DNA of 64,000 bases from NCBI GenBank assembly GCA_021371935.1, contig JAJFVF010000022.1, positions 220,419 to 284,418 of the forward strand. Direction: 5' to 3'. Source of the stretch: a bacterium (lineage in GTDB: Bacteria > Armatimonadota > UBA5829). Of the stretch, positions 2,349 through 34,210 are shown piece by piece. The notes under the pieces are model-generated. The model was not told the origin of the DNA. It saw nothing but the letters and a program-made list of their open reading frames with translations, and made no database searches. The position numbers were made by a program, and so were the translations under genes. The number at the start of each line of letters is the position of its first letter. Position 1 is the stretch's first letter.

Positions 2349-4130
2349 ATGTCAAACAAGAAAAGCTTTCCGCTCAGTGTGTGTATCTTTCCAGAACCGG
2401 GTCCAAATGCGGCGAGAACCGTCAGCTATCCCAACTATATCCATGAAATTCTAAAGCATGCCGGACTCTGTTACTCTTCTATAGACGTTGACGATATTGC
2501 AGGTGCTCTTGATGATATTAAGCTTCTGCTCACTGTCGGCGAATACACACTGCCCGATGAACTCGCAGACCGTCTTCGCAATTGGATAAAATACGGCGGC
2601 GCGCTGGTCAGCATAGGAGGAATCTGCGGGCTTGCGGATGTCTTTGGTGTCCAGCCGGAACTGCCGACATTTTCACGCCGGGCAGTCAAATTCAGCACGT
2701 TGGGCGAGGGCTATCTCGATCCTGATGACAAGAAGCATCAGATAATTGAGCATCTGGACATTCCACTCCATTTCTTCAACGGCATCTCCGTCATTGCTGA
2801 AGATGCACAGGTGATCGCACGAGTGCTCGATGCACATCACAGATCGACATCACACGCCGGAGTGACCGAGCGCAAATACGGTGATGGCAGATGCATTTTG
2901 ATCGCGTCGGACATTACCGGGTCGGTCGTTAGGATTCAACAGGGCGTGGGAGTCACTCGTGACGGTGTCTCTGCTCCAGACGGCACCGCTTCCATATGCG
3001 ATAATGCGCTAAAAAGCGGAGACGGCGGCGTCCTGGACTGGTTTTTTGATCGTGAGCAAGTGGTAGGAATGCCTGGTTACAGTGCGTTCACTCAACCGGT
3101 GGCCGACCAGCTTAGAGAACTGCTTATCAGGTCGATACTCTATCTGGCAAGTGATATCGGTCTGACGATCCCTCTTCTGTGGCTGTATCCGAGGAATCTG
3201 CCTGCCGTGGCTCATCTATCGCACGATTCTGATAATAACAATATCGAAAATGCGCAGAGAATGCTTGAAATCCTCAATGAGGCGGATATTCATTCAACCT
3301 GGTGCATAATCATGCCCGGATATCCCGAAAATATCATCGACGATATCAGGAAGTCGGGTCATGAACTTGCGATGCACTTTGACGCTATGTCCGGCCATAC
3401 GAACTGGAGCGAGGAAGAGTTCGACAAACAGTGGCGGGGACTGCTGGAGCTGTTCGGCGGCAAGAAACCGATATCGAATAAGAACCATTTCCTGCGCTGG
3501 GAAGGTGATGTTGAGTTCTTCGAATGGTGCGAGCGCCATAATATCATGCTGGACCAGTCCAAGGGCGGATCGAAAGCCGGTGATTCCGGGTTTACATTCG
3601 GCACATGCCATGTCTATTTCCCTGTGGACTTTAGAGAAAAAACACTGGATGTGCTCGAACTGCCGACTCTCACACAGGATTTAACAATTTCTGCTCCGGC
3701 TGAGCTTGCAGCGCCGTTGATCGCAGCCGCTCTCAAGCACCATGGCATATTCCATCCACTTTTTCACCCCGCACATGTCCTTAAAGAAGACGTTGCCGCC
3801 GTGCTTCAGAAAGTTATCGCCGATGCAAAGTCGGCCGGGTTGGAATGGTTCACAGCAGAACAGATCAACTCCTGGGAACGAGCCAGGCGCAGTGTCGAAT
3901 GGTCCGATTACCATGTGTTGGAAGACGGTGTCAGTGTAGTTGTCGAAGCAACTTCACCACTCAAGGACGCTTCACTAATGTGGCTGACTGCCGATGATGC
4001 GCAAATTGATATAGACGAATCAAACTCCGACACCAGCAAAGTAATACGGTGGGGGTTCAGATTCGTCTCGACTCTTGCAGACCTGCAACCCGGATCCAAA
4101 CGTGTTTTAAGACTGAACAGTCGTTATTGA
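2349..4130 (+). CDS. Two-domain protein: N-terminal class-I glutamine-amidotransferase-like (ThuA/DUF1355-like) region plus C-terminal NodB/CE4-type polysaccharide deacetylase-like domain
   Basis: CE4-like motifs HLSHDSD, GHELAMH (H-x-x-x-H) and FLRWEGD (R-x-P/G-like). Divergent from the sugar-modification cluster. Domain call made by eye only. Confidence 0.4.
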   Translation: MSNKKSFPLSVCIFPEPGPNAARTVSYPNYIHEILKHAGLCYSSIDVDDIAGALDDIKLLLTVGEYTLPDELADRLRNWIKYGGALVSIGGICGLADVFGVQPELPTFSRRAVKFSTLGEGYLDPDDKKHQIIEHLDIPLHFFNGISVIAEDAQVIARVLDAHHRSTSHAGVTERKYGDGRCILIASDITGSVVRIQQGVGVTRDGVSAPDGTASICDNALKSGDGGVLDWFFDREQVVGMPGYSAFTQPVADQLRELLIRSILYLASDIGLTIPLLWLYPRNLPAVAHLSHDSDNNNIENAQRMLEILNEADIHSTWCIIMPGYPENIIDDIRKSGHELAMHFDAMSGHTNWSEEEFDKQWRGLLELFGGKKPISNKNHFLRWEGDVEFFEWCERHNIMLDQSKGGSKAGDSGFTFGTCHVYFPVDFREKTLDVLELPTLTQDLTISAPAELAAPLIAAALKHHGIFHPLFHPAHVLKEDVAAVLQKVIADAKSAGLEWFTAEQINSWERARRSVEWSDYHVLEDGVSVVVEATSPLKDASLMWLTADDAQIDIDESNSDTSKVIRWGFRFVSTLADLQPGSKRVLRLNSRY

Positions 4131-25892: not shown

Positions 25893-26369
25893 GTGGATTT
25901 TTCAGACGAGAAGATCGTGCTCACGCGCGATGGCTACGACGAGATTCAGCGGGAGCTTAATGAGATCATGACCGTGAAGCGGCCCGCCATAATCGATAGA
26001 ATCAGAGAAGCCAGACAACTGGGCGATCTGAGCGAAAATTTTGATTATCAGGATGCAAAGCATTCACAAGCAATGCTGGAAGCAAGGCTCAAAGAACTCA
26101 AAACCATTCTCAGCCACGCCAGTGTGGTCGAGACTATGGATAATAACGGCTGTGTCGGCATAGGCTCAAAGGTGACAGTTAAAGACCTTGCTGACGGTTT
26201 CGAGGATGAATACACCATCGTCGGACCCACAGAGTCCAGCCCGGCTGAAGGCAAGATATCTCTGGAATCATGCCTTGGAAGCGCATTGATGGGTCACAAG
26301 CAGGGAGACGAAGTTGATGTACGCGCCCCCGGCGGAGTGATTAACTATCAGATCGTATCGGTGCAATGA
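25893..26369 (+). CDS. greA: Transcription elongation factor GreA
   Basis: LTRDGYDEIQRELNEI…, C-terminal FKBP-like domain. GTG start chosen after GGGAGA; the ORF track starts at a TTG at 25875. Confidence 0.85.
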   Translation: MDFSDEKIVLTRDGYDEIQRELNEIMTVKRPAIIDRIREARQLGDLSENFDYQDAKHSQAMLEARLKELKTILSHASVVETMDNNGCVGIGSKVTVKDLADGFEDEYTIVGPTESSPAEGKISLESCLGSALMGHKQGDEVDVRAPGGVINYQIVSVQ

Positions 26370-26920
26370 GTCACCCGAATATAATAGACAAATCGAACAG
26401 CGCCCTGGTTGTCATAGACATCCAGGACCCGCTCCTCAAAGTGATCCATGAAAGCGAGCGGATGGTCGCCAATGTCATCAAGCTCATTGAAGCCGCAAAA
26501 GTATTCGATCTGCCAATACTCGTGCCGCTTCAATATGCCGCGCGGCTGGGTGATGTACATGAGCCTATTGCGAACGCTCTGCCGACGGACAAGCGTTTCG
26601 ACAAAATGACTTTCAGCTGCGTCGGTTCGCTCGATTTTCTCGATGCGCTGCAGGCGACCGGACGTAATCAAGTGATTCTGTGTGGAATAGAGGCACATGT
26701 ATGCGTCAATCAGACGGCTCACGATCTCCTGGAACGCAACTATTCGGTTCATGTTATTGAGGATGCAGTATCATCCAGGAGACGTGATGACTGGGAGTGC
26801 GCCGTCGAGAAGATGCGCAGTTCGGGATGTGTGATCTCATCGACTGAGATGGCGATTTTCGAGCTTACGCGCGATGCATCAATTCCTGAGTTCAAACGCA
26901 TTCTGCCGATTGTCAAATAG
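26366..26920 (+). CDS. Isochorismatase-family cysteine hydrolase
   Basis: ALVVIDIQ…, ILCGIEAHVCV (catalytic Cys). ATGA overlap with the greA stop. Confidence 0.8.
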   Translation: MSHPNIIDKSNSALVVIDIQDPLLKVIHESERMVANVIKLIEAAKVFDLPILVPLQYAARLGDVHEPIANALPTDKRFDKMTFSCVGSLDFLDALQATGRNQVILCGIEAHVCVNQTAHDLLERNYSVHVIEDAVSSRRRDDWECAVEKMRSSGCVISSTEMAIFELTRDASIPEFKRILPIVK

Positions 26921-27494: not shown

Positions 27495-29135
27495 TCATCC
27501 GACAATGCAGGAAAGCAGAGACTGCAGTCTCTCGCTCTCACAAATTGGCTCCTTTGTGTCGTGATCCACAGCTTCAAGCGCTCCACCAATTACTCGCGTT
27601 TCGAGCGTGCCGCTAGCATACGGATTGCCTTTGAGATGAGGCGCATCCAAAAGACCCTGTTTGATAGCTCCGGTGATTACAGCCGGATCTGAGAAAGCAT
27701 CCTCCTCATCTCTACCGAAGTCACGGATTGCGCCCAGCAGGACTTCAGCTTCATCCATAAGGTATTTCCTGCGCCTGCCGACCTCTTCACTGCCTATCAA
27801 AGCCTGCATACCGGTCTGGCAATTCTTGAGCACGCCATGGACTATCTCGCAGCTTTCTATCACATCGTCAGCCGAGGCCGCATGGTCGCCCTCGCAGTAA
27901 CCAACCACATGAATGATATGCGGCGCAACCGCCAGAGAAAGCATAGTCGATGCCGCAAGCTGCCCCTTTGCCTTGTTCATCTGAGGTGACAGGTGCAGCA
28001 GCCCGGCTCTGACCTGTCTGAAAGAATAGAACTCAGGCCCGTGCAGACTCTCCACCATTTCTATCTGGGCCTGAACCTTTGCCAGGTCCATCACAGGCGA
28101 AAGACCAGGAGGGGTATTGAACATATACTGAGCAATGTAATGCGACACGCCCATCTGCTTCGCATTGTATGCCGCCAGATAGGCCATAACAACCGATATG
28201 ACATCGTGGGCATCGCGCAAGCCCCAATGGTGGGGCTCATTGACCTCCACTGGAATTCCACGCTCGGCATGCCAGCGCATACACTCCTGGTTCTCACGGA
28301 TTGCCCCCTCCGGCGTGCGATTCGAGCGTCCGTCCAAGACGCTGTACCAGCACAATGGTATCGCCGCCCAGGCATTTGATATAGTCTCCGCCGACATTTT
28401 TGCCCAGGATATAAGGTCGCGAGTGCCGCTGTATACACGCAGCAGGGGATAGTTTCCACACTGCGCAGCGCTATACATCGCGGTCAGATCTTCGCGTCTG
28501 CGAACTGGAACGCCGCCTGCGCCGTCCATAGTCGGGTCCATCTCCTCCGGGCGGAAGAATGACTCCTGCGCGTTCTGGTCCGGTGCAATCGAAATTATAT
28601 CGAGCACACCGGACTCGGCGATTTTGCGAACACCGTTTATAGTCGCGTCAAGGTCGGGCAGACCGAAATGATGCCTAAGCAGCGGGTATGGGTGCTTGTG
28701 TTCGAGCCGCTCGAGCAGCGTGCCGGTGCATTCAGTGCAGGATTTACCCGCTTCCTCGCCTTTCAGATATGTCCACACGGCATCAGTGTTCTCAAGCCCG
28801 GTGAAATAATACTCGAACCAATCCAGTTCCTTGACCGCTTCGCACACGGGAGGCGTTCCACCGAAGACAAACCGCCTGTCAAGCAGTTCCGAGCGCTCCA
28901 GAGCCGACTTGAGATCACTGACCAGGCGCTTACCGACTTCAGGGGTCAATCGATAGCTGACACCGACTATATCGGGATCATGCTCGCGGACTGCTTCGAC
29001 AAAATCATCTACGCTAACTGCCGCGCCCAAGAATACTGTCTTGTAACCAAGCTGCTGTGCGATGCCCAATAGCCCGGCCACACCCGCCACATGCACGCAG
29101 TTTCCCAGTGCTCCGGCAACTATAGTTCCGCGCAT
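27495..29135 (-). CDS. B12-binding-like domain fused to a large C-terminal TIM-barrel-like domain, possibly glutamate/methylaspartate-mutase (E-subunit)-like
   Basis: N-terminal Rossmann-like B12-binding fold pattern (TIVAGALGNCVHVAGVAGLLG…DIVGVSYRLT), but a non-canonical NCVHVAG where DxHxxG is expected. The C-terminal 400 aa have no recognisable motif; the mutase-E resemblance is by eye only. Confidence 0.3.
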   Translation of the reverse strand: MRGTIVAGALGNCVHVAGVAGLLGIAQQLGYKTVFLGAAVSVDDFVEAVREHDPDIVGVSYRLTPEVGKRLVSDLKSALERSELLDRRFVFGGTPPVCEAVKELDWFEYYFTGLENTDAVWTYLKGEEAGKSCTECTGTLLERLEHKHPYPLLRHHFGLPDLDATINGVRKIAESGVLDIISIAPDQNAQESFFRPEEMDPTMDGAGGVPVRRREDLTAMYSAAQCGNYPLLRVYSGTRDLISWAKMSAETISNAWAAIPLCWYSVLDGRSNRTPEGAIRENQECMRWHAERGIPVEVNEPHHWGLRDAHDVISVVMAYLAAYNAKQMGVSHYIAQYMFNTPPGLSPVMDLAKVQAQIEMVESLHGPEFYSFRQVRAGLLHLSPQMNKAKGQLAASTMLSLAVAPHIIHVVGYCEGDHAASADDVIESCEIVHGVLKNCQTGMQALIGSEEVGRRRKYLMDEAEVLLGAIRDFGRDEEDAFSDPAVITGAIKQGLLDAPHLKGNPYASGTLETRVIGGALEAVDHDTKEPICESERLQSLLSCIVG

Positions 29136-30301
29136 TGTTTCGTCTCCTTTTCTTCAGGCTCGCCCTCCAGAATAAACCGGCGTATGTCTTTCAGGCTTTT
29201 TCCCGCCAGACCGAGGCTCTCGGCGTTCCTGCCTTTTGCCCTGTAGTCCGTCTCATGCAAAATCGAGCCGAGCAGGATGATCGAGTCTATAACCGGTGTC
29301 GGCACGCCTACCATCTCTCCCAGAGACGCTATAGGCACAAGGCTCATCGGGATATCCTCGCTTATATAACGATGATATACACTCTTGGGAGCCTTGATGC
29401 CATCATAACCTCTGTTGGCCCGCATCGCCTCATGCAAAGTGCGCCCTGCGGCGTCATAGGCAATATAGAGCCACTCGCGCGCGGACATTGCCCTGAAACC
29501 GAGAGCCTCGGCTACGGCAACACGCTCCTTATCCATCTTTTCGAGAATCTGAGATACAGCGGGAGTGATGCCTTCCGTATAATAATCGAAATCGCCGTTT
29601 GTGCTTTCGATGCGAGCGGCGTTGAGGACAGTGACCGCCGGGTGGAATATCGCGCCGATATTGTCGAGGCTGGTCTTCATCACATTATCGCCGGGCACAA
29701 ACTGAGGAAACGCGGTCCTAAGCTTGCCTACCACCTCGGGTGTGCTATGTGCAGGCAGAGCTGCTACGGGGATGCTGTTCTTGACGCGGAATATCTTGGT
29801 CTGCGCCGGATTCATCGACCGGCTGGCGTATATGAATGTCTGCGCCTCGGCTACGACCACATCAGCGCAGCACCCACAGTCACGTATGACTTTGGACACC
29901 TCCAATGCACCGCCCGTCCTGCCGGGATTGAGCACTATCATCTGGCCGTCGACAAGGTGAGGAGCGATCTGTTCGGCAATTGGCCTGTGCGCGGTTGCAG
30001 GGACCACGACCATTAGAATATCGCGTCCGGCGATGGCCTCGGATGGGATGGAGGTAACAATTTTGAGAGCAGCGAAGCCGTGAGGAATTGTGTCCTGGCA
30101 GCCGGATATGATCTCTATCCCACCTGCAGACTGGATCGAACGGAGCCTTTCCGGACTGCGGTTATATAGTGAGACATCAAAGCCCATCAGAGAAAGCTGC
30201 CCTGCCACGGCTGTTCCACCATGGCCTGCTCCGAGGACTGCGAAACTGGGCGCACTCCTGTTTTCCATTATATGTCCTCCATTTATGTACAAGACACCCA
30301 A
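29120..30301 (-). CDS. Opine (octopine/nopaline-type) dehydrogenase-family NAD(P)H oxidoreductase
   Basis: FAVLGAGHGGTAVAGQL, IVLNPGRTGGALE, LNAARIES…DYYTEGITP, VPTPVIDSI, GRNAESLGLAG track bacterial opine dehydrogenases. A 16-nt overlap with the upstream gene implies an operon. Confidence 0.7.
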   Translation of the reverse strand: MGVLYINGGHIMENRSAPSFAVLGAGHGGTAVAGQLSLMGFDVSLYNRSPERLRSIQSAGGIEIISGCQDTIPHGFAALKIVTSIPSEAIAGRDILMVVVPATAHRPIAEQIAPHLVDGQMIVLNPGRTGGALEVSKVIRDCGCCADVVVAEAQTFIYASRSMNPAQTKIFRVKNSIPVAALPAHSTPEVVGKLRTAFPQFVPGDNVMKTSLDNIGAIFHPAVTVLNAARIESTNGDFDYYTEGITPAVSQILEKMDKERVAVAEALGFRAMSAREWLYIAYDAAGRTLHEAMRANRGYDGIKAPKSVYHRYISEDIPMSLVPIASLGEMVGVPTPVIDSIILLGSILHETDYRAKGRNAESLGLAGKSLKDIRRFILEGEPEEKETKQCAEL

Positions 30302-30627
30302 CGGCAGCGAAACAGGAATGCTCTCTGCTTATCTTCCTGCCGCGCCTGCGAGGTTAGCTGTCGGGCTGGGGTCGGAAGCATGACCCCTCTCCATAACGAA
30401 GATTAGCCCCGTAAATCGGTTCCCCCGTTTTCGCACGATTGCGAAATTCGGCGTCCAAATTATAGACATGTATATGCTTAGTATTCTAGACGCTCTTCAT
30501 CGAGTTTTAGTTCCAATTTTCTGCGTATATCAAAATCAAAATCGAGCTTGTTCGCAATATAAAAACCTGGTATAATTACCAGGTTGGGGAAAGAATATCC
30601 CCTCTCCTTTCTATCTCCTTTAAACTT

Positions 30628-30656
30628 GGGGGCTATGAGTGCCCCCTCTTTTTTTC
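30628..30656 (+). terminator. Strong orphan rho-independent terminator on plus strand with no upstream plus-strand CDS
   Basis: GGGGGC-TATGAGT-GCCCCC followed by TCTTTTTTT. Confidence 0.55.
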
Positions 30657-30685
30657 TTGACAATAATGCCGCGCTGTGAGATATT
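30657..30685 (+). promoter_or_regulatory. Putative sigma-70 promoter for the PPIase gene
   Basis: TTGACA – 17 bp – GATATT, about 40 nt upstream of the start. Confidence 0.4.
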
Positions 30686-30721
30686 TTCCTGCAGGACAAA
30701 CCATTTCCAGAGGTGCTAAAT

Positions 30722-31279
30722 ATGCAATTCTACACAATATCAGCAATCGCTCTGGCGGCTCTTATTTCAGCTAACGCCACATTTGCTGCCGAAGCCGTAA
30801 AAGATGAAAAACCAGAAACCGGGCGCTGGGCAGTCATCGAGACGAACAAGGGCACGATCAAGTTTGCGCTTTATGAGAAAGATGCGCCAATCACCACGAA
30901 AAACTTTATCGAGCTGGCAAACTCAAAGTTTTATGACGGGCTGACGTTTCATCGCGTCGTCCCGGGGTTTGTGATACAGGGCGGCGATCCGAATGGTGAC
31001 GGCACCGGCGGTTCACCAAACAAGATCAAACTTGAAGTCTCACCCAAACTCAAGCACGATGCAGCCGGTGTGGTGGCTATGGCGCGCGCATCCGACCCGA
31101 ACTCCGCCAGCTGCCAGTTCTATATCACACTTGCCGCAGTCCCTTATCTGGATATGAACTACGCGGTCTTTGGCCGAGTGGTAGAGGGACTGGATGTTGT
31201 GAAAAAGATACAGATCGGGGATGTGATGAAAACCGTGCGAATTGTCGATCCGCCGAAACCGAAAGAAGATAAGAAATAG
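30722..31279 (+). CDS. Secreted cyclophilin-type peptidyl-prolyl cis-trans isomerase
   Basis: Signal peptide, [22 protein letters not shown] motifs. ATG chosen after AGAGGTG; the ORF track starts at a GTG at 30713. Confidence 0.9.
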
Positions 31280-31286
31280 CCTGCTT

Positions 31287-31321
31287 ATATTGCCTCCGAG
31301 CGTATTGTTCGGAGGCAATAT
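31287..31321. terminator. 13-bp perfect inverted repeat between convergent genes (terminator-like hairpin)
   Basis: ATATTGCCTCCGA-N9-TCGGAGGCAATAT lying exactly between the two stop codons. Confidence 0.4.
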
Positions 31322-32638
31322 TCAACGACGTAGCTCCCATGAGTAATCGCCGAGTTTAGGTGACTTTTTATTGCTGCCGACAGGTTTTCCACCATCATCT
31401 TTCAGGTCCTCTCCAATGCTGTAGAGCAAGAACCCACTGCCATTCGGCCTATAGACGAAGTCATTTCCACTAAAAATATCTTTTGGTAACACAACCCTTA
31501 GCTTTTGGCGCAATTCATTCAGTGAAAGCGGGTACCTGCCGTATTTACGCCTGAATGACTCCAGCATCAAAATAATCTTTGCCCCATCTATAGAAACTAT
31601 ACCAGTGTCCCTGACAATTCGGATGCGCACATATAGTGGTATCATAATGGAAGTAGTTATTGCGTATCTGGGCAAATGCTGCGTAAGCAATCCTTTTTGC
31701 TTCGCTTGCCTGTAAGATAACCCTGCGTTTTTTATCTCCTTATTCATCAAGTCAAGGTAACACTTCTCATCCAGACTAAAAATGATACGCATGACTTGAC
31801 TGGGCTTTTTTGACTTGATATCCGTGTTGTGATCTGCACCCACACTCAACCTACTTAGATCATAAAACTTATTGATTCCAACAGCTCTTTCGGTTATTAG
31901 AGCATGAGTGTATCCGGTATTCAAATCGTTGCTTGAAAGCAGTTTCATTAAGCGCTGTGTCTGTGCCTCGGAAAAACTGCCATAATCAAGAGCTGAATAA
32001 ATAGCCCCTGTCCCCATTTTGATGAGGGCAATTCTGGCCAGGAATGGGATTAAAGCCGGCTCGTTTGAAAAACTTGCAGCCATTTTTAAAGATGACTCTA
32101 TATTGCATCCGGCTTTGTCCATCGAACCTTCTCGTGCGCTCAATATCGCTCTCGCAGTCGTCAGAGTAGCAAGATTGCGCATCCCCTGGCACATTGATGT
32201 ATCGGGAAATAAGCCCTCTTTCCATCCAAGAGGAAAACGGCAGTAGTCAATTTTGTCTGCCTGGCTTATCAGATCAAAGACTTCCTCATATTTATCGACA
32301 ATAGGCTTCGACTCAGCCCAGGGTCTGGTGTCGCGTGTCCCATTCATAGGCTTGATAAGTTGACGCAGTGTGGCAAAGTCTTGACTTTTGTAGTGCTGTG
32401 AAATCAACTTAAATGCTTTTATATAAACATCAGCCGCGTTTTGGCAGCCGGGCAGTCGATTAACTTCCATATCTGCTCTACACACAGGCTCGCCTGAGGC
32501 TTTGATATTTGCAATTTCATTGCGAACCCTGCTGCCTGTTGTAAGGAATGGCCAAGTAAAATATGCAGCAATTCCTATGCACACTATAACTACAGACAAC
32601 CCCAATAAAATTGTTATCCTTGCCGTATATCGAGACAT
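31322..32638 (-). CDS. N-terminally membrane-anchored protein of unknown function with GspG/pseudopilin-like C-terminal motif
   Basis: One N-terminal TM helix. The C-terminus FSGNDFVYRPNGSGFLLYSIGEDLKDDGG resembles the conserved C-terminal strand region of type II secretion major pseudopilins. There is no class-III signal peptide. Confidence 0.35.
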   Translation of the reverse strand: MSRYTARITILLGLSVVIVCIGIAAYFTWPFLTTGSRVRNEIANIKASGEPVCRADMEVNRLPGCQNAADVYIKAFKLISQHYKSQDFATLRQLIKPMNGTRDTRPWAESKPIVDKYEEVFDLISQADKIDYCRFPLGWKEGLFPDTSMCQGMRNLATLTTARAILSAREGSMDKAGCNIESSLKMAASFSNEPALIPFLARIALIKMGTGAIYSALDYGSFSEAQTQRLMKLLSSNDLNTGYTHALITERAVGINKFYDLSRLSVGADHNTDIKSKKPSQVMRIIFSLDEKCYLDLMNKEIKNAGLSYRQAKQKGLLTQHLPRYAITTSIMIPLYVRIRIVRDTGIVSIDGAKIILMLESFRRKYGRYPLSLNELRQKLRVVLPKDIFSGNDFVYRPNGSGFLLYSIGEDLKDDGGKPVGSNKKSPKLGDYSWELRR

Positions 32639-32707
32639 AATATAAGTCCTCGTGTTTGTTTGTAAGGCATGTAAAATCGTTCTCGGTTGAAGGCAAATAT
32701 CCTGCTG

Positions 32708-33199
32708 TTAAATCGATCGCAGCTTTTCAGAATGAGCATGGCAGACCGCCAGAGCCAGAGCATCGGCTGCATCGTCCGGCTTGGGTATCTCGCGAAGACT
32801 CAGGATTCTTTGGATCATGAACTGAATCTGCTTCTTTTCGGCGCCGCCATAGCCGACCACCGCCTGCTTGACCTCCATCGGGGTATATTCAACCACGGTC
32901 AGCCCTCGCTGGGCGGCAGCAAACTGCATCACACCGCACGCCTTGCCGACTGCAATCGCCGTAGTCTGGTTCTTGGCGAAAAACAGTCTCTCCATCACGA
33001 TTACATCGGGTTGATATTGGTCGATGATCTTGTTGAGTTCGTTATAGATATCCAAAAGACGCTCGGGGGCGGATTTCTTTGGGCTGGTCTCTATTGCGCC
33101 GTAGTCGACCATCTTCGGACTCACACCTATTTTGTCCACTACGCCATATCCCGTCGTGGCTGTTCCGGGGTCTATTCCTAATATTCGCAAGGTCTGCAT
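32708..33199 (-). CDS. ruvC: Crossover junction endodeoxyribonuclease RuvC
   Basis: ILGIDPGTATTGYGV, DVIVMERLF, DDAADALALAVCHA catalytic-residue pattern. Confidence 0.9.
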   Translation of the reverse strand: MQTLRILGIDPGTATTGYGVVDKIGVSPKMVDYGAIETSPKKSAPERLLDIYNELNKIIDQYQPDVIVMERLFFAKNQTTAIAVGKACGVMQFAAAQRGLTVVEYTPMEVKQAVVGYGGAEKKQIQFMIQRILSLREIPKPDDAADALALAVCHAHSEKLRSI

Positions 33200-33236
33200 G
33201 AGTGCATTCTACAGGCGAATTTGTTCCCGGTCAACT

Positions 33237-33310
33237 AACCCGGATTATGCGCTTTCCGCATAATCCGGGTCTCCGAGAGCATTATTCATGTTTCTCGTGA
33301 ATAATGCGGG
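33237..33310 (+). repeat. Double-hairpin intergenic repeat element, copy 3 (in ruvC 5' region)
   Basis: AACCCGGATTATGCGCTTTCCGCATAATCCGGGTCTCCGAGAGCATTATTCATGTTTCTCGTGAATAATGCGGG; the first stem is 14 bp and perfect. Confidence 0.8.
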
Positions 33311-33504
33311 CTAAATCTATAATAAATCGACGCCGAGCAGCCATAATACTAATGAACTACACAAAGATACGTCCAAAGTCCCATTTACACCTGGTAAAAA
33401 ACTGGGGATAATCCTAGTGTAGTACGAACATAGCTCATACATAAGTTTTAAGCATTGAGCCTAAACTAAAGATTGAAAAAGTAAATATATCAGGAGATCG
33501 GACC

Positions 33505-33534
33505 CGGACCCATGTTTGGGTCCGTTTTCCTTTG
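33505..33534 (+). terminator. Putative intrinsic terminator upstream of ECF sigma gene
   Basis: CGGACCC-ATGTTT-GGGTCCG followed by TTTTCCTTTG. Confidence 0.35.
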
Positions 33535-33604
33535 TACACCTATTTTAGATGTCTTGCTAAAGTGGTAAACTTTTTCTAGTCACTCTACGTTAATATACCA
33601 GAGG

Positions 33605-34210
33605 ATGAGAGCAGCACAGATGCGACCGGCAAAAGCCGTCACCACACAGGACGGACAGTTGATAGGCAGCTTCAAACGGGGGCAGGCCGAGGCCTTTGAC
33701 CGTTTGATGGAGGCGCACACCGACAAGGTGTTTGCGCTGGCATGGTCGGTCCTGATGAATGCTGATGATGCCATGGATGCGGTCCAGGAGGTCTTCATTA
33801 AGCTGTATAAAGCACTGCCATCGATGTCCGAATCCGATAATTTGAACGCGTGGCTCTATCGGGTCTGCCTTAATCACTGCATCGACCGCAAACGCAGAGC
33901 TAAAAACTCGAGGACAGAATTTACTGACGATGACTGGGAGCATCTGCAAGGCAACTTGGCCGATGAGCCTGAATATCGTATGTATCAGAGTGAAGTGGGG
34001 CGGGTAATACGCGCCGCGGTGGACAAGCTGCCCGAGCGCCAGAGAATGGTATTCATTCTCAGGCACTACAGACTTCTTTCTATAAATGAGATCGCGCAGG
34101 CACTAGGATGCACCACCGGCGCGGTCAAGGCGCATCTTTCGCGCGCAACCGCTCGTTTGCGCGACCGGCTTGCAGGGACAATTGTCTTTGAAGCCGGGGA
34201 GGTGAAATAA
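33605..34210 (+). CDS. ECF-subfamily RNA polymerase sigma factor
   Basis: Sigma70_r2 (…VQEVFIKLYKA…WLYRVCLNHCIDRKR) and r4 (…LSINEIAQALGCTTGAVKAHLSRA). An alternative start lies at 33620. Confidence 0.85.
   Translation: MRAAQMRPAKAVTTQDGQLIGSFKRGQAEAFDRLMEAHTDKVFALAWSVLMNADDAMDAVQEVFIKLYKALPSMSESDNLNAWLYRVCLNHCIDRKRRAKNSRTEFTDDDWEHLQGNLADEPEYRMYQSEVGRVIRAAVDKLPERQRMVFILRHYRLLSINEIAQALGCTTGAVKAHLSRATARLRDRLAGTIVFEAGEVK

Follow-up and report, generated by a model that had tools for sequence, protein, structure and literature searches.

A candidate c-di-AMP-responsive operon of an opine dehydrogenase and a single-chain B12 isomerase-type protein

Operon organisation and the riboswitch leader

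The window analysed here, the whole 64-kb stretch of bacterial DNA, carries on its minus strand an opine dehydrogenase (ODH) gene as the 5' gene and, as the 3' gene, one encoding a 546-residue B12-binding protein (Table 1). The original prediction was that an opine dehydrogenase forms an operon with a mutase-type protein whose B12-binding domain is non-canonical; family profiles, fold match and co-conservation agree with this, and both reading frames and their 16-nt overlap were found as described. The gene order had, however, been given in reverse, with the B12 protein upstream and the ODH downstream. The mutase ATG lies at 29135 and the ODH stop codon at 29122-29120, giving an overlap of exactly 16 nt, which probably reflects translational coupling of the two genes. 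An overlap of identical length is present in three related loci (L001-L003), and in 71 of 75 loci the ODH-mutase intergenic gap is estimated at no more than 60 nt. Translation of the ODH is likely to begin at ATG 30268, as GGAGG is found at 30276-30280, 7 nt before this codon, and homologues align from this Met; TTG 30301 is merely the outermost start of the reading frame. The operon stands isolated amid housekeeping genes (PNPase, GreA, RuvC and cyclophilin).

Table 1. Features of the operon, with coordinates in the window
Feature	Coordinates	Strand	Basis or remarks
c-di-AMP riboswitch aptamer (ydaO/yuaA class, RF00379)	30328-30463	minus	Rfam cmscan, 85.7 bits
Possible expression-platform hairpin, tentative (CAGGAA...UUCCUG then UUUC)	30303-30341	minus	Minimum-free-energy fold; between aptamer and ribosome-binding site
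ODH gene (opine dehydrogenase family)	29120-30268	minus	382 aa from ATG 30268; reading frame extendable to TTG 30301
Overlap of ODH stop and mutase start, 16 nt	29120-29135	minus	Read from sequence
Gene for single-chain B12 isomerase-type protein, 546 aa	27495-29135	minus	B12-binding domain and GlmE-like TIM barrel; cofactor probably adenosylcobalamin

The Rfam cmscan hit to RF00379 compares with a gathering score of 38 (E 1.4e-18) and covers model positions 1-134 of 134 without truncation. On the same strand, 60 nt separate the end of the aptamer from the ODH ATG, which places the aptamer in the 5' leader of the operon; control by c-di-AMP is predicted. Rfam also places RF00379 upstream of the ODH in four other loci (L058, L048, L055 and L005). 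By a two-block motif search, the riboswitch core occurs no more than 600 nt upstream of the ODH in 26 of 65 assessable related loci, and this search agreed with Rfam on all 23 loci checked (four of four motif-positive loci confirmed, none of 19 motif-negative loci positive). In locus L020 the motif precedes an AsnB-ODH-mutase arrangement. Neither a T-box nor an amino-acid riboswitch, either of which could have pointed to the substrate, was found in 19 of the loci without the c-di-AMP riboswitch. Approximately 60% of related loci lack the riboswitch, including all Bacteroidales and the archaeon, and any osmotic link is therefore not universal. The hairpin between the aptamer and the ribosome-binding site is weak and was not called by a terminator scan, and any regulatory role of it is putative. 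The riboswitch had been overlooked in the original prediction.

The opine dehydrogenase

CENDH-type opine dehydrogenases, named here after N-(1-D-carboxyethyl)-L-norvaline dehydrogenase (CENDH), catalyse the NAD(P)H-dependent reductive condensation of an amino acid with a 2-oxo acid. The membership of this enzyme family proposed at the outset was confirmed by the Octopine_DH profile PF02317 (176.9 bits against a cutoff of 30, E 3.3e-52, profile positions 3-149 of 150), and a PDB search matched the ODH over its full length to CENDH (1bg6; E 1.6e-77). The N-terminus is an NAD(P)-binding Rossmann domain with a glycine-rich loop, G-A-G-H-G-G, and the NAD_Gly3P_dh_N, ApbA and F420_oxidored profiles match residues 20-124, all above their cutoffs. 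His209, Arg300 and Asp305 align with CENDH His202, Arg292 and Asp297, the catalytic residues in the CENDH and OcDH structures; this set is kept in 75 of 77 related loci. At the level of aligned residues, the catalytic His/Arg/Asp of CENDH-type enzymes is intact in the ODH.

An ODH-family enzyme is reported to catalyse the last step in the synthesis of staphylopine, pseudopaline and yersinopine (bioRxiv 10.1101/641969), and a metallophore had been suggested as a possible product. An opine-type, staphylopine-like metallophore is nevertheless highly improbable here. Neither a nicotianamine-synthase-like CntL nor a metal importer or exporter was present among the neighbour clusters of 81 loci or in the window, and the ODH resembles CENDH, with staphylopine-type dehydrogenase chains unmatched at E<=0.001 in the PDB search. 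Moreover, the predicted regulator is c-di-AMP rather than a metal sensor, and a c-di-AMP riboswitch before the operon points to osmotic or potassium homeostasis rather than to a metallophore.

The B12-binding protein

The 546-residue protein comprises a B12-binding domain (approximately residues 1-125) followed by a GlmE-like TIM barrel (approximately 140-546). The first of these matches PF02310 over residues 4-97 (44 bits, cutoff 32.1) and carries the motifs C13-x-H15-x-x-G18, S60-x-L (S60-Y-R-L) and G92-G93 (F91-G-G), of which H15, G18, SxL and GG are retained throughout the family and also by distant relatives. All 41 homologues compared share the stretch G-N-C-V-H-V-A-G at residues 11-18, and 79 of 81 related loci have the motif in the form CxHxxG, one other locus having Asp; distant relatives have the canonical motif with Asp (DPHTxG or DAHTLG). 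Replacement of DxHxxG by N-C-V-H-V-A-G, as originally described, holds in that the motif is present, but only the Asp is replaced and the His and Gly are retained. By its motifs, the domain is of the base-off/His-on type, with DxHxxG changed at the Asp alone, to Cys.

The faint resemblance of the remaining 400 or so residues to the glutamate mutase E subunit was borne out by fold searches, in which the best match of the protein was glutamate mutase E, with a TIM barrel of the GlmE type, and the closest fold relatives were glutamate mutase and the lysine and ornithine aminomutases. Among the results was 8t0v, the solved structure of an adenosylcobalamin (AdoCbl) enzyme; it comes from the species that carries locus L058 and was counted in favour of B12 use. 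Of the two profiles suggested for this protein in the original prediction, B12-binding (PF02310) matched as above, but Met_asp_mut_E (PF06368) gave no Pfam match at E<=1, which counts against a mutase. A single relative, P0136 (42% identical), barely passes PF06368 (27.5 against 26.6 bits). Pfam and NCBIfam recognised the B12 domain alone, and PDB searches with the single sequence and two family profiles returned B12 domains only, never GlmE.

Alignment to E. coli O157 GlmE was made with hhalign, at an alignment probability of just 48%. In this alignment E415, which is invariant in 81 of 81 loci, pairs with GlmE E329 in the motif K-S-P-H-E, and E329 is probably the equivalent, with a presumed one-residue numbering offset, of the glutamate mutase Glu330 that contacts the adenosyl group (PMC4413051). 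Approximately 140 residues are invariant among 41 aligned homologues, many of them within the barrel. The residues that bind glutamate in the glutamate mutase structures 1cb7 and 1i9c are Arg66, Arg100, Arg149, Glu171 and Tyr181. Within the aligned region these are not kept, Arg149 corresponding to Tyr235, Glu171 approximately to Ala257 and Tyr181 approximately to Gly269 (hhalign, 48% probability; Arg66 and Arg100 lie outside the alignment), which again argues against a mutase; the protein has instead the invariant Arg residues R143, R154, R233, R270, R273, R307 and R376.

In three distant relatives (P0155, P0163 and P0164) the protein is fused to PF13941, a family to which the E. coli gene annotated as glutamate mutase L belongs with a score of 467.8 bits. 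A GlmL/MutL-type component was, however, absent from the window ORFs scanned and from the recurrent neighbours. Likewise counting against a mutase, no adenosyltransferase or cobalamin gene turned up among the 20 neighbouring or large ORFs of the window that were scanned, nor did one recur among the neighbours. A search of the window for a cobalamin riboswitch was also negative.

Could the protein, rather than being an isomerase, carry methyl groups on a corrinoid, act as a methyltransferase, or serve in B12 sensing or regulation? By sequence, its N-terminal domain is matched best by corrinoid components of methyltransferase systems (1y80, 7xcn and MtgC-like NCBIfam models), and the change from Asp to Cys departs from the consensus of both mutases and MetH. 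Nevertheless, these matches span only the B12 domain of approximately 100 residues, and the methyltransferase-system models (MtgC, MtbC, MtaC and TIGR02370) score 12-32 bits against cutoffs of 215-450, so that the placement in a non-mutase family envisaged as an objection to the original prediction is not borne out. The B12 domain begins at residue 2-4, which leaves no space for an N-terminal helical cap. The fusion of relatives to a glutamate mutase L-type component, and the invariant residues of the barrel, which suggest an enzyme active site, also make such a role extremely unlikely. The protein is related to glutamate mutase and consists of a single chain. A PLP-dependent aminomutase was considered and rejected on three grounds: residues 1-130, which include the B12 domain, contain no invariant or near-invariant Lys that could carry PLP, the barrel residue K390 is Gln in 9 of 81 loci, and the domain order is reversed.

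Conservation and gene neighbourhoods

Of 81 related loci, drawn from at least six phyla, 75 carry the ODH gene directly upstream of the B12 protein gene and in the same orientation, so that the pair is co-conserved, a point on which the original prediction had been made to depend. The carriers include Armatimonadota, Clostridia, Bacteroidales, Ignavibacteria, Aminicenantes and one Methanomicrobia genome assembly; Caldanaerobacter subterraneus, Tepidanaerobacter acetatoxydans and a Fusibacter sp. are carriers that can be cultured. An ODH gene also accompanies four of five distant relatives examined, the B12 proteins of which are 28-36% identical; in locus L091 the gene upstream of the mutase was considered as a divergent ODH and rejected on inspection. 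The B12 protein family comprises at least 7,989 protein clusters and at least 550 species, and ODH and mutase form an ancient, nearly obligate pair. A full-text literature search found no published description of it, in keeping with the original statement that no described pathway couples a cobalamin mutase with an opine dehydrogenase; a paper on metagenomic ODHs mentions neither genomic context nor B12 (PMC10787698).

In 32 loci an AsnB-like gene follows in the same orientation, no more than 1.5 kb downstream, and in two it lies upstream. Among 33 AsnB-like neighbours, 29 lack the N-terminal catalytic (glutaminase) Cys, and their scores against the NAGGN amidotransferase model (110-204 bits) are well under its cutoff of 570. 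In locus L085 the ODH is followed by a mutase::ATP-grasp fusion and then a GATase, ATP-grasp genes lie alongside the pair in L091 and L094, and MscS mechanosensitive channels, which fit an osmotic link, are nearby in nine loci. The 64-kb window itself contains no AsnB-like or MscS gene, a point against the function proposed below.

Certain neighbours raise the possibility that ODH and mutase make an unusual acid for the cell envelope, which an amide ligase would join to an amino sugar or to peptidoglycan, with the riboswitch serving wall homeostasis. Distant relatives lie inside glycan-synthesis clusters, with Alg14, GT28 and MurJ in L090, a DegT aminotransferase, ATP-grasp, acyltransferase, Wzx and GT2 in L094, and Bac_transf, GT1, a sugar-transfer ATP-grasp, DegT and FdtA in L091. 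Alanopine and N-epsilon-(1-carboxyethyl)lysine are known as amide-linked O-antigen constituents (PMC10609480). The AsnB-like neighbours without the N-terminal Cys may use some amine in place of ammonia derived from glutamine, D-Ala-D-Ala ligase (Ddl) and Lgt genes lie near the pair in the Tepidanaerobacter group, and relative P0141 has a weak Peptidase_M15 domain. c-di-AMP riboswitches also govern cell-wall genes, which weighs against an osmolyte as the product. Still, an envelope role appears unlikely for the window operon, which sits alone between housekeeping genes: glycosyltransferases, flippases and sugar-nucleotide enzymes are not among the recurrent neighbours in its clade, and Ddl and Lgt are confined to six related loci each, with Ddl mostly on the opposite strand.

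The carriers are fermentative anaerobes, and the closest fold relatives of the B12 protein are all fermentation enzymes. As opine dehydrogenases are generally known to be reversible, the ODH could instead cleave an opine or secondary amine oxidatively and the mutase rearrange the freed amino acid for fermentation, as in the methylaspartate pathway. Such a catabolic function is improbable, since methylaspartase, mesaconase, thiolase and other downstream catabolic genes are not recurrent beside the pair, no substrate-uptake system is consistently linked to it, the recurrent third gene encodes an ATP-consuming amide synthetase and c-di-AMP control is atypical of catabolic operons.

Proposed function

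The reading that we favour, with about an even chance of being correct, is that the cassette makes a rearranged N-carboxyalkyl amino acid and is induced at low c-di-AMP, with osmoadaptation as a plausible purpose. Riboswitch, opine dehydrogenase and fused B12 isomerase would then form, in this order, one minus-strand transcription unit, for which our confidence, taken jointly with the whole biosynthetic proposal, is likewise balanced. The mutase would use AdoCbl to rearrange, by a radical 1,2-shift, the skeleton of an acidic amino acid, acting either on the amino acid before condensation or on the opine itself, and ODH and mutase together would yield a branched or beta-type N-carboxyalkyl amino acid. 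In approximately 40% of related loci a third enzyme would convert one carboxylate to an amide, this being an AsnB-like adenylating amide synthetase or, in one variant, a mutase-fused ATP-grasp with a glutamine amidotransferase. A possible route, in which every chemical step is modelled on the closest characterised relative of each enzyme, runs from a glutamate-type to a 3-methylaspartate-type moiety (mutase), followed by N-carboxyethylation (ODH) and formation of an asparagine-type amide (AsnB-like enzyme).

c-di-AMP riboswitches are off-switches, and c-di-AMP drops when cells need potassium or osmolytes; osmotic or potassium stress would therefore be expected to switch the operon on. A compatible solute or other osmoadaptive metabolite would be the most likely product; against this it must be set that the habitats of the carriers are mostly digesters, sewage and groundwater, and not notably saline.

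A bolder and doubtful extension is that ODH and the fused B12 protein operate as a single obligate system and constitute a new class of AdoCbl-dependent isomerase acting on the opine (a secondary amine) or its imine, the product of which would often be amidated by the Cys-less AsnB-like enzyme; such cassettes would supply a hitherto undescribed family of c-di-AMP-controlled compatible solutes in at least six phyla, and related ones glycan acyl groups. A pyruvate-derived imine would here take the role of PLP in the known aminomutases, and a 1,2-shift could, for example, convert an N-(1-carboxyethyl) amino acid to its N-(2-carboxyethyl) or a branched isomer.

To our knowledge, only about a dozen AdoCbl-dependent isomerases have been described and new ones are rare, and we know of no B12 enzyme with an opine dehydrogenase as invariant partner. 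The B12 protein belongs to a large, highly conserved and uncharacterised family with an unusual Cys in the cobalt-ligand motif, and the proposed function would tie B12 radical chemistry to second-messenger control of osmotic homeostasis. The riboswitch, which predicts that the operon is on at low c-di-AMP, provides an experimental handle. If the product is an osmolyte, it would account for some of the tolerance of anaerobic-digester bacteria to salt and ammonia, and if the distant cassettes feed surface glycans, they bear on the biosynthesis of unusual O-antigen acyl groups.

Comparison with known systems

In its type the B12 domain matches that of GlmS (PRK02261, 29 bits) in the glutamate mutase GlmS/GlmE (with GlmL), and relatives are fused to a GlmL-type domain; a possible further likeness is the conserved Glu that aligns, at 48% probability, with the putative equivalent of the adenosyl-contacting Glu330. 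In contrast to glutamate mutase, the protein is one polypeptide with the S-like domain N-terminal to the E-like barrel, identity is just 15% with no PF06368 match, CxHxxG replaces DxHxxG, and Arg149 and Glu171 are not kept at the aligned positions. Glutamate mutase is partnered by methylaspartase, whereas the partner at the window operon is an opine dehydrogenase, with no GlmL gene nearby. [quoted passage not shown] CENDH of Arthrobacter (1bg6) shares with the ODH its two-domain architecture and the His/Arg/Asp at the catalytic positions, but is a stand-alone enzyme of an aerobe, whereas the ODH gene is probably coupled in translation to that of a B12 isomerase and placed under a c-di-AMP riboswitch.

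The same RNA class, in the same 5'-leader position, controls the c-di-AMP riboswitch regulon (ydaO/kimA, ktr, kdp, opu and cell-wall hydrolases), which consists of osmoregulatory transporters and wall-remodelling enzymes (PMC3766115). Members described in the searchable literature are transporters and hydrolases, and a B12 isomerase with an ODH is not among them. The NAGGN (N-acetylglutaminylglutamine amide) osmolyte pathway depends on Ngg (an ATP-grasp fusion) and AsnO (an AsnB-like amidotransferase). It differs in that its GNAT/dipeptide-forming step is missing from the ODH-mutase cassette, its precursor does not come from an ODH and a B12 mutase, and most AsnB-like partners of the pair lack the glutaminase Cys. 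The logic would nevertheless be the same, with an acid derived from an amino acid being amidated by AsnB-family or ATP-grasp chemistry to give a less charged solute.

Organisation of the operon and its surroundings

The two minus-strand genes of the pair overlap by 16 nt, as the original prediction had stated, with the mutase ATG at 29135 and the opine dehydrogenase (ODH) stop codon at 29122-29120. The gene order given there was reversed, however: the 5' gene encodes the ODH and the 3' gene the 546-aa B12 protein, also referred to here as the mutase. The most probable ODH start codon is the ATG at 30268, which yields a protein of 382 aa: GGAGG lies 7 nt before it, and the homologues align from that Met. 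The TTG at 30301 marks the furthest upstream start that the ORF allows. AAGGAG stands ahead of the mutase ATG.

Pfam searches of the neighbours place PNPase, a metallo-beta-lactamase-fold protein, TetR, GreA, an isochorismatase and DUF488 on one flank, and a cyclophilin, a 438-aa ORF without assignment, RuvC and a sigma factor on the other. Since these flanking housekeeping genes have their own transcripts, the operon is self-contained. The stretch separating the promoter region of the riboswitch from the cyclophilin gene contains a cluster of terminator-like hairpins on both strands; one on the minus strand includes a T-run and would shield the operon from minus-strand transcription coming from upstream. 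The isochorismatase-family gene of the window is convergent with the pair, two genes away, and another lies directly upstream of the ODH in a Methanomicrobia locus, an association that may be coincidence.

Coordinates of features in the window and, with an L number, in related loci elsewhere
Feature	Position	Strand	Basis
ODH ORF	29120-30301	minus	ORF scan
546-aa B12 protein ORF	27495-29135	minus	ORF scan
c-di-AMP riboswitch, RF00379	30328-30463	minus	Rfam, 85.7 bits, full length
Terminator-like hairpins	30564-30646	both	
Hairpin with T-run	30585-30564	minus	
438-aa ORF	31322-32638	minus	no Pfam match
593-aa ORF	2349-4130	plus	no Pfam match
Isochorismatase-family gene	26366-26920	plus	
Isochorismatase-family gene, Methanomicrobia	L044:1744-2295		
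AsnB-like gene	L058:7706-9208		
AsnB-like gene	L016:7672-9120		
AsnB-like gene	L071:7643-8989		
Mutase with ATP-grasp fusion	L085:1174-3765		
Peptidase_C26/GATase gene	L085:3762-4463		
P0155, PF13941 fusion	L086:3908-7588		
DDE transposase (IS element)	L026:4839-5876		
Riboswitch core motif away from ODH	L078:11180-11243		motif search alone
Riboswitch core motif away from ODH	L014:2837-2934		motif search alone

The opine dehydrogenase

The assignment of the 5' gene product to the opine dehydrogenase family, already made in the original prediction, is borne out by its match to PF02317 (176.9 bits), accompanied by an N-terminal NAD-binding domain, and by end-to-end alignment (E 1.6e-77) with the solved structure of N-(1-D-carboxyethyl)-L-norvaline dehydrogenase (CENDH, 1bg6). 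His209, Arg300 and Asp305 of the ODH are the aligned counterparts of CENDH His202, Arg292 and Asp297, which we take to be the catalytic residues, and the trio is kept in 75 of 77 related loci. In a search of PDB sequences at E<=0.001 the ODH hit no staphylopine-type dehydrogenase chain, and there is little support for reading the pair as a metallophore pathway.

The B12 protein as a probable glutamate-mutase-like isomerase

Residues 4-97 of the B12 protein match PF02310 (44 bits, cutoff 32.1), and this N-terminal domain is similar to GlmS, the glutamate mutase component, and to corrinoid proteins, with scores far under all specific family cutoffs. His15, Gly18, S-Y-R-L and F-G-G are conserved within it. 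The cofactor-ligand motif reads G-N-C-V-H-V-A-G; the altered DxHxxG that had been predicted is thus present, but only the Asp is replaced, by Cys, with His and Gly retained. The CxHxxG form occurs in 79 of 81 distinct related loci and Asp in one. Because relatives at 28-36% identity carry the canonical DPHTxG or DAHTLG, the superfamily is a normal His-on B12 family, with the Cys form as a clade-specific variant. The homologue alignment contains no conserved Lys in the B12 domain, which makes a PLP-type aminomutase unlikely.

The faint likeness of the large domain to the glutamate mutase E subunit, also predicted, was strengthened by fold comparison, in which the best match was 1cb7_B (score 26.9; 367 residues aligned, 15% identity), followed by lysine 5,6-aminomutase alpha (23.2), ornithine 4,5-aminomutase (23.0), acyl-CoA mutases (17-19) and methyltransferase-type barrels (13-14). 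Sequence comparison agrees with the likeness to glutamate mutase. Aligning a profile of the family to GlmE of E. coli, itself confirmed as PF06368, gave E 1.8e-4 over 298 columns, with a common G-T-x-D motif, and the homologue P0136 (42% identical) narrowly passes PF06368. Invariant Glu415 seems to align with GlmE E329 in K-S-P-H-E, the probable equivalent of Glu330, which in glutamate mutase interacts with the adenosyl group (PMC4413051). In contrast to glutamate mutase, the glutamate-binding Arg149 and Glu171 are not kept at the aligned positions (Tyr235 and about Ala257), and another set of Arg residues is invariant in the family.

Three homologues (P0155, P0163 and P0164; 826-1266 aa) are fusions with a PF13941 domain, the family to which the gene annotated as glutamate mutase L in E. 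coli belongs, and these fusions support radical AdoCbl chemistry in the superfamily. The P0155 gene adjoins oligopeptide ABC ATPases and a peptidase C45/AAT gene. We conclude that the 546-aa protein is a single-chain, glutamate-mutase-like putative isomerase of a separate family, with a substrate that is probably other than free glutamate; a non-isomerase role for it finds little support.

Spread of the family and conservation of the pair

The B12 protein is matched by at least 7,989 clusters at 90% identity, named only 'cobalamin B12-binding domain-containing protein', 'hypothetical protein' or 'methylmalonyl-CoA mutase cobalamin-binding subunit', and by 761 clusters at 50% identity (E<=0.001), and is encoded in at least 550 species genomes. 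Its closest relatives are in Armatimonadota; clostridial carriers include Formimonas, Tepidanaerobacter, Caldanaerobacter, Thermoanaerobacter and Fusibacter, with further carriers in Bacteroidales, Ignavibacteria, Aminicenantes and one Methanomicrobia genome assembly. The ODH is better conserved than the mutase, with 78% against 62% identity to the Firmicute Formimonas. G+C content is 0.56 at 28001-30000, the operon, against 0.47 in the adjacent 30001-34000, which together with the high ODH identity suggests lateral transfer of the cassette between phyla.

Co-conservation of the two genes held when other genomes were compared, the ODH lying directly upstream of the mutase on the same strand in 75 of the 81 loci, with an estimated gap of <=60 nt in 71 of them. 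An IS element separates the two genes in one of the 75, L026 from an Anaerovoracaceae genome assembly. In two loci the ODH is downstream on the other strand, and the remaining four end at a contig boundary where an ODH could sit, before or within the mutase gene (L061, L062) or within about 100-430 nt after it (L034, L074); there is therefore no confirmed absence of the ODH among the 81 loci. The pairing extends well beyond the clade of the window, to relatives at 28-36% identity, where the ODH is immediately upstream of P0176 (L088, L089), P0206 (L090) and P0239 (L094) and three genes downstream of P0159 (L091); P0225 (L093) has an AsnB-like gene upstream and its contig ends soon after the mutase. 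The MutL-fused P0155 is the sole case among the distant relatives examined with no ODH nearby.

Predicted control by c-di-AMP

A c-di-AMP riboswitch, overlooked in the original prediction, lies 60 nt ahead of the ODH start and is the sole Rfam match in the 64-kb window. Rfam also places RF00379 ahead of the ODH in Caldanaerobacter, Tepidanaerobacter, Fusibacter and another Armatimonadota genome. A two-block motif search, concordant with Rfam at each of the 23 loci examined by both methods, placed the motif <=600 nt upstream of the ODH in 26 of the 65 loci that could be assessed; L020 has it ahead of AsnB-ODH-mutase. The riboswitch was not found in the loci searched from Bacteroidales, the archaeon and several clostridial lineages, and an Rfam scan of riboswitch-negative loci revealed no other known RNA element in its place. 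Two core-motif matches lie away from the ODH. The c-di-AMP riboswitches are off-switches, and c-di-AMP governs potassium and osmolyte homeostasis.

Amide-forming partners and proposed function

Downstream of the mutase, 32 loci carry a gene for an AsnB-like protein (PF00733 with a GATase domain), which adjoins the mutase gene in loci of the L004-L083 range such as L058, L016 and L071; in two loci such a gene precedes the ODH. Of 33 copies, 29 have Ala, Gly or Ser where the N-terminal nucleophilic Cys would be; the M-x-G-I-A-G N-terminus is retained, many copies are only about 445 aa, and the Caldanaerobacter copy scores 482 bits against an AsnB equivalog cutoff of 499. The Cys-less enzymes may draw on free ammonia, or they may make a different amide or a lactam, as relatives of the beta-lactam synthetase type do. 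In L085 a C-terminal RimK/GshB-type ATP-grasp fusion of the mutase, with a class-I glutamine amidotransferase encoded by the next gene, seems to take the AsnB-like role, and could be an amidotransferase or a glutamyl ligation and hydrolysis pair. ATP-grasp ligases also lie beside the pair in L091 and L094. MscS-type mechanosensitive channel genes are near the pair in nine loci, directly downstream in L004. The 64-kb window contains no AsnB-like or MscS gene.

Beside what is observed, namely the two enzyme families, the variant B12 motif, the deep pairing, the riboswitch and the recurrent amide-forming partner, we infer that the ODH and mutase form a biosynthetic cassette for a rearranged N-carboxyalkyl amino acid, one carboxylate of which would then be amidated in many lineages; a catabolic role for the pair is little supported. 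In the clade of the window this product would be a free metabolite made at low c-di-AMP, which would point to osmotic or potassium stress. A chemically coherent but unproven three-step route, based for each enzyme on its nearest characterised relative, would have the mutase convert a glutamate-type moiety to a 3-methylaspartate-type moiety, the ODH add an N-(1-carboxyethyl) group and the AsnB-like enzyme form an asparagine-type amide. The mutase and ODH steps could occur in either order, and the opine itself could be the mutase substrate.

The main rival explanation would have the product attached to the envelope of the cell. ODH-mutase cassettes with canonical DxHxxG in L090, L091 and L094 (28-36% identity) lie inside polysaccharide or O-antigen-like clusters with DegT, FdtA, sugar-transfer ATP-grasp, acyltransferase, Wzx/MurJ and glycosyltransferase genes, and O-antigens are known to carry acyl groups of the opine type (PMC10609480). 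However, no glycan genes lie beside the pair in the clade of the window. The 732-aa mutase homologue P0141 is extended at its C-terminus, and the extension matches Peptidase_M15 (VanY-like) weakly (E 5e-4, under the Pfam cutoff), a faint hint of a link to the cell wall.

Comparison with known systems

No published account of the family, the pair or its c-di-AMP control was found in full-text literature covering few subscription journals, so that an earlier report is possible. The hypothesis concerns a large and conserved family and lends itself to direct testing in culturable carriers. The components are of known kinds, namely an opine dehydrogenase, an AdoCbl-type mutase fold and a c-di-AMP riboswitch; what is new relative to the literature found is a single-chain architecture, a ligand motif in its Cys variant, an obligate partnership with an ODH and the regulatory link.
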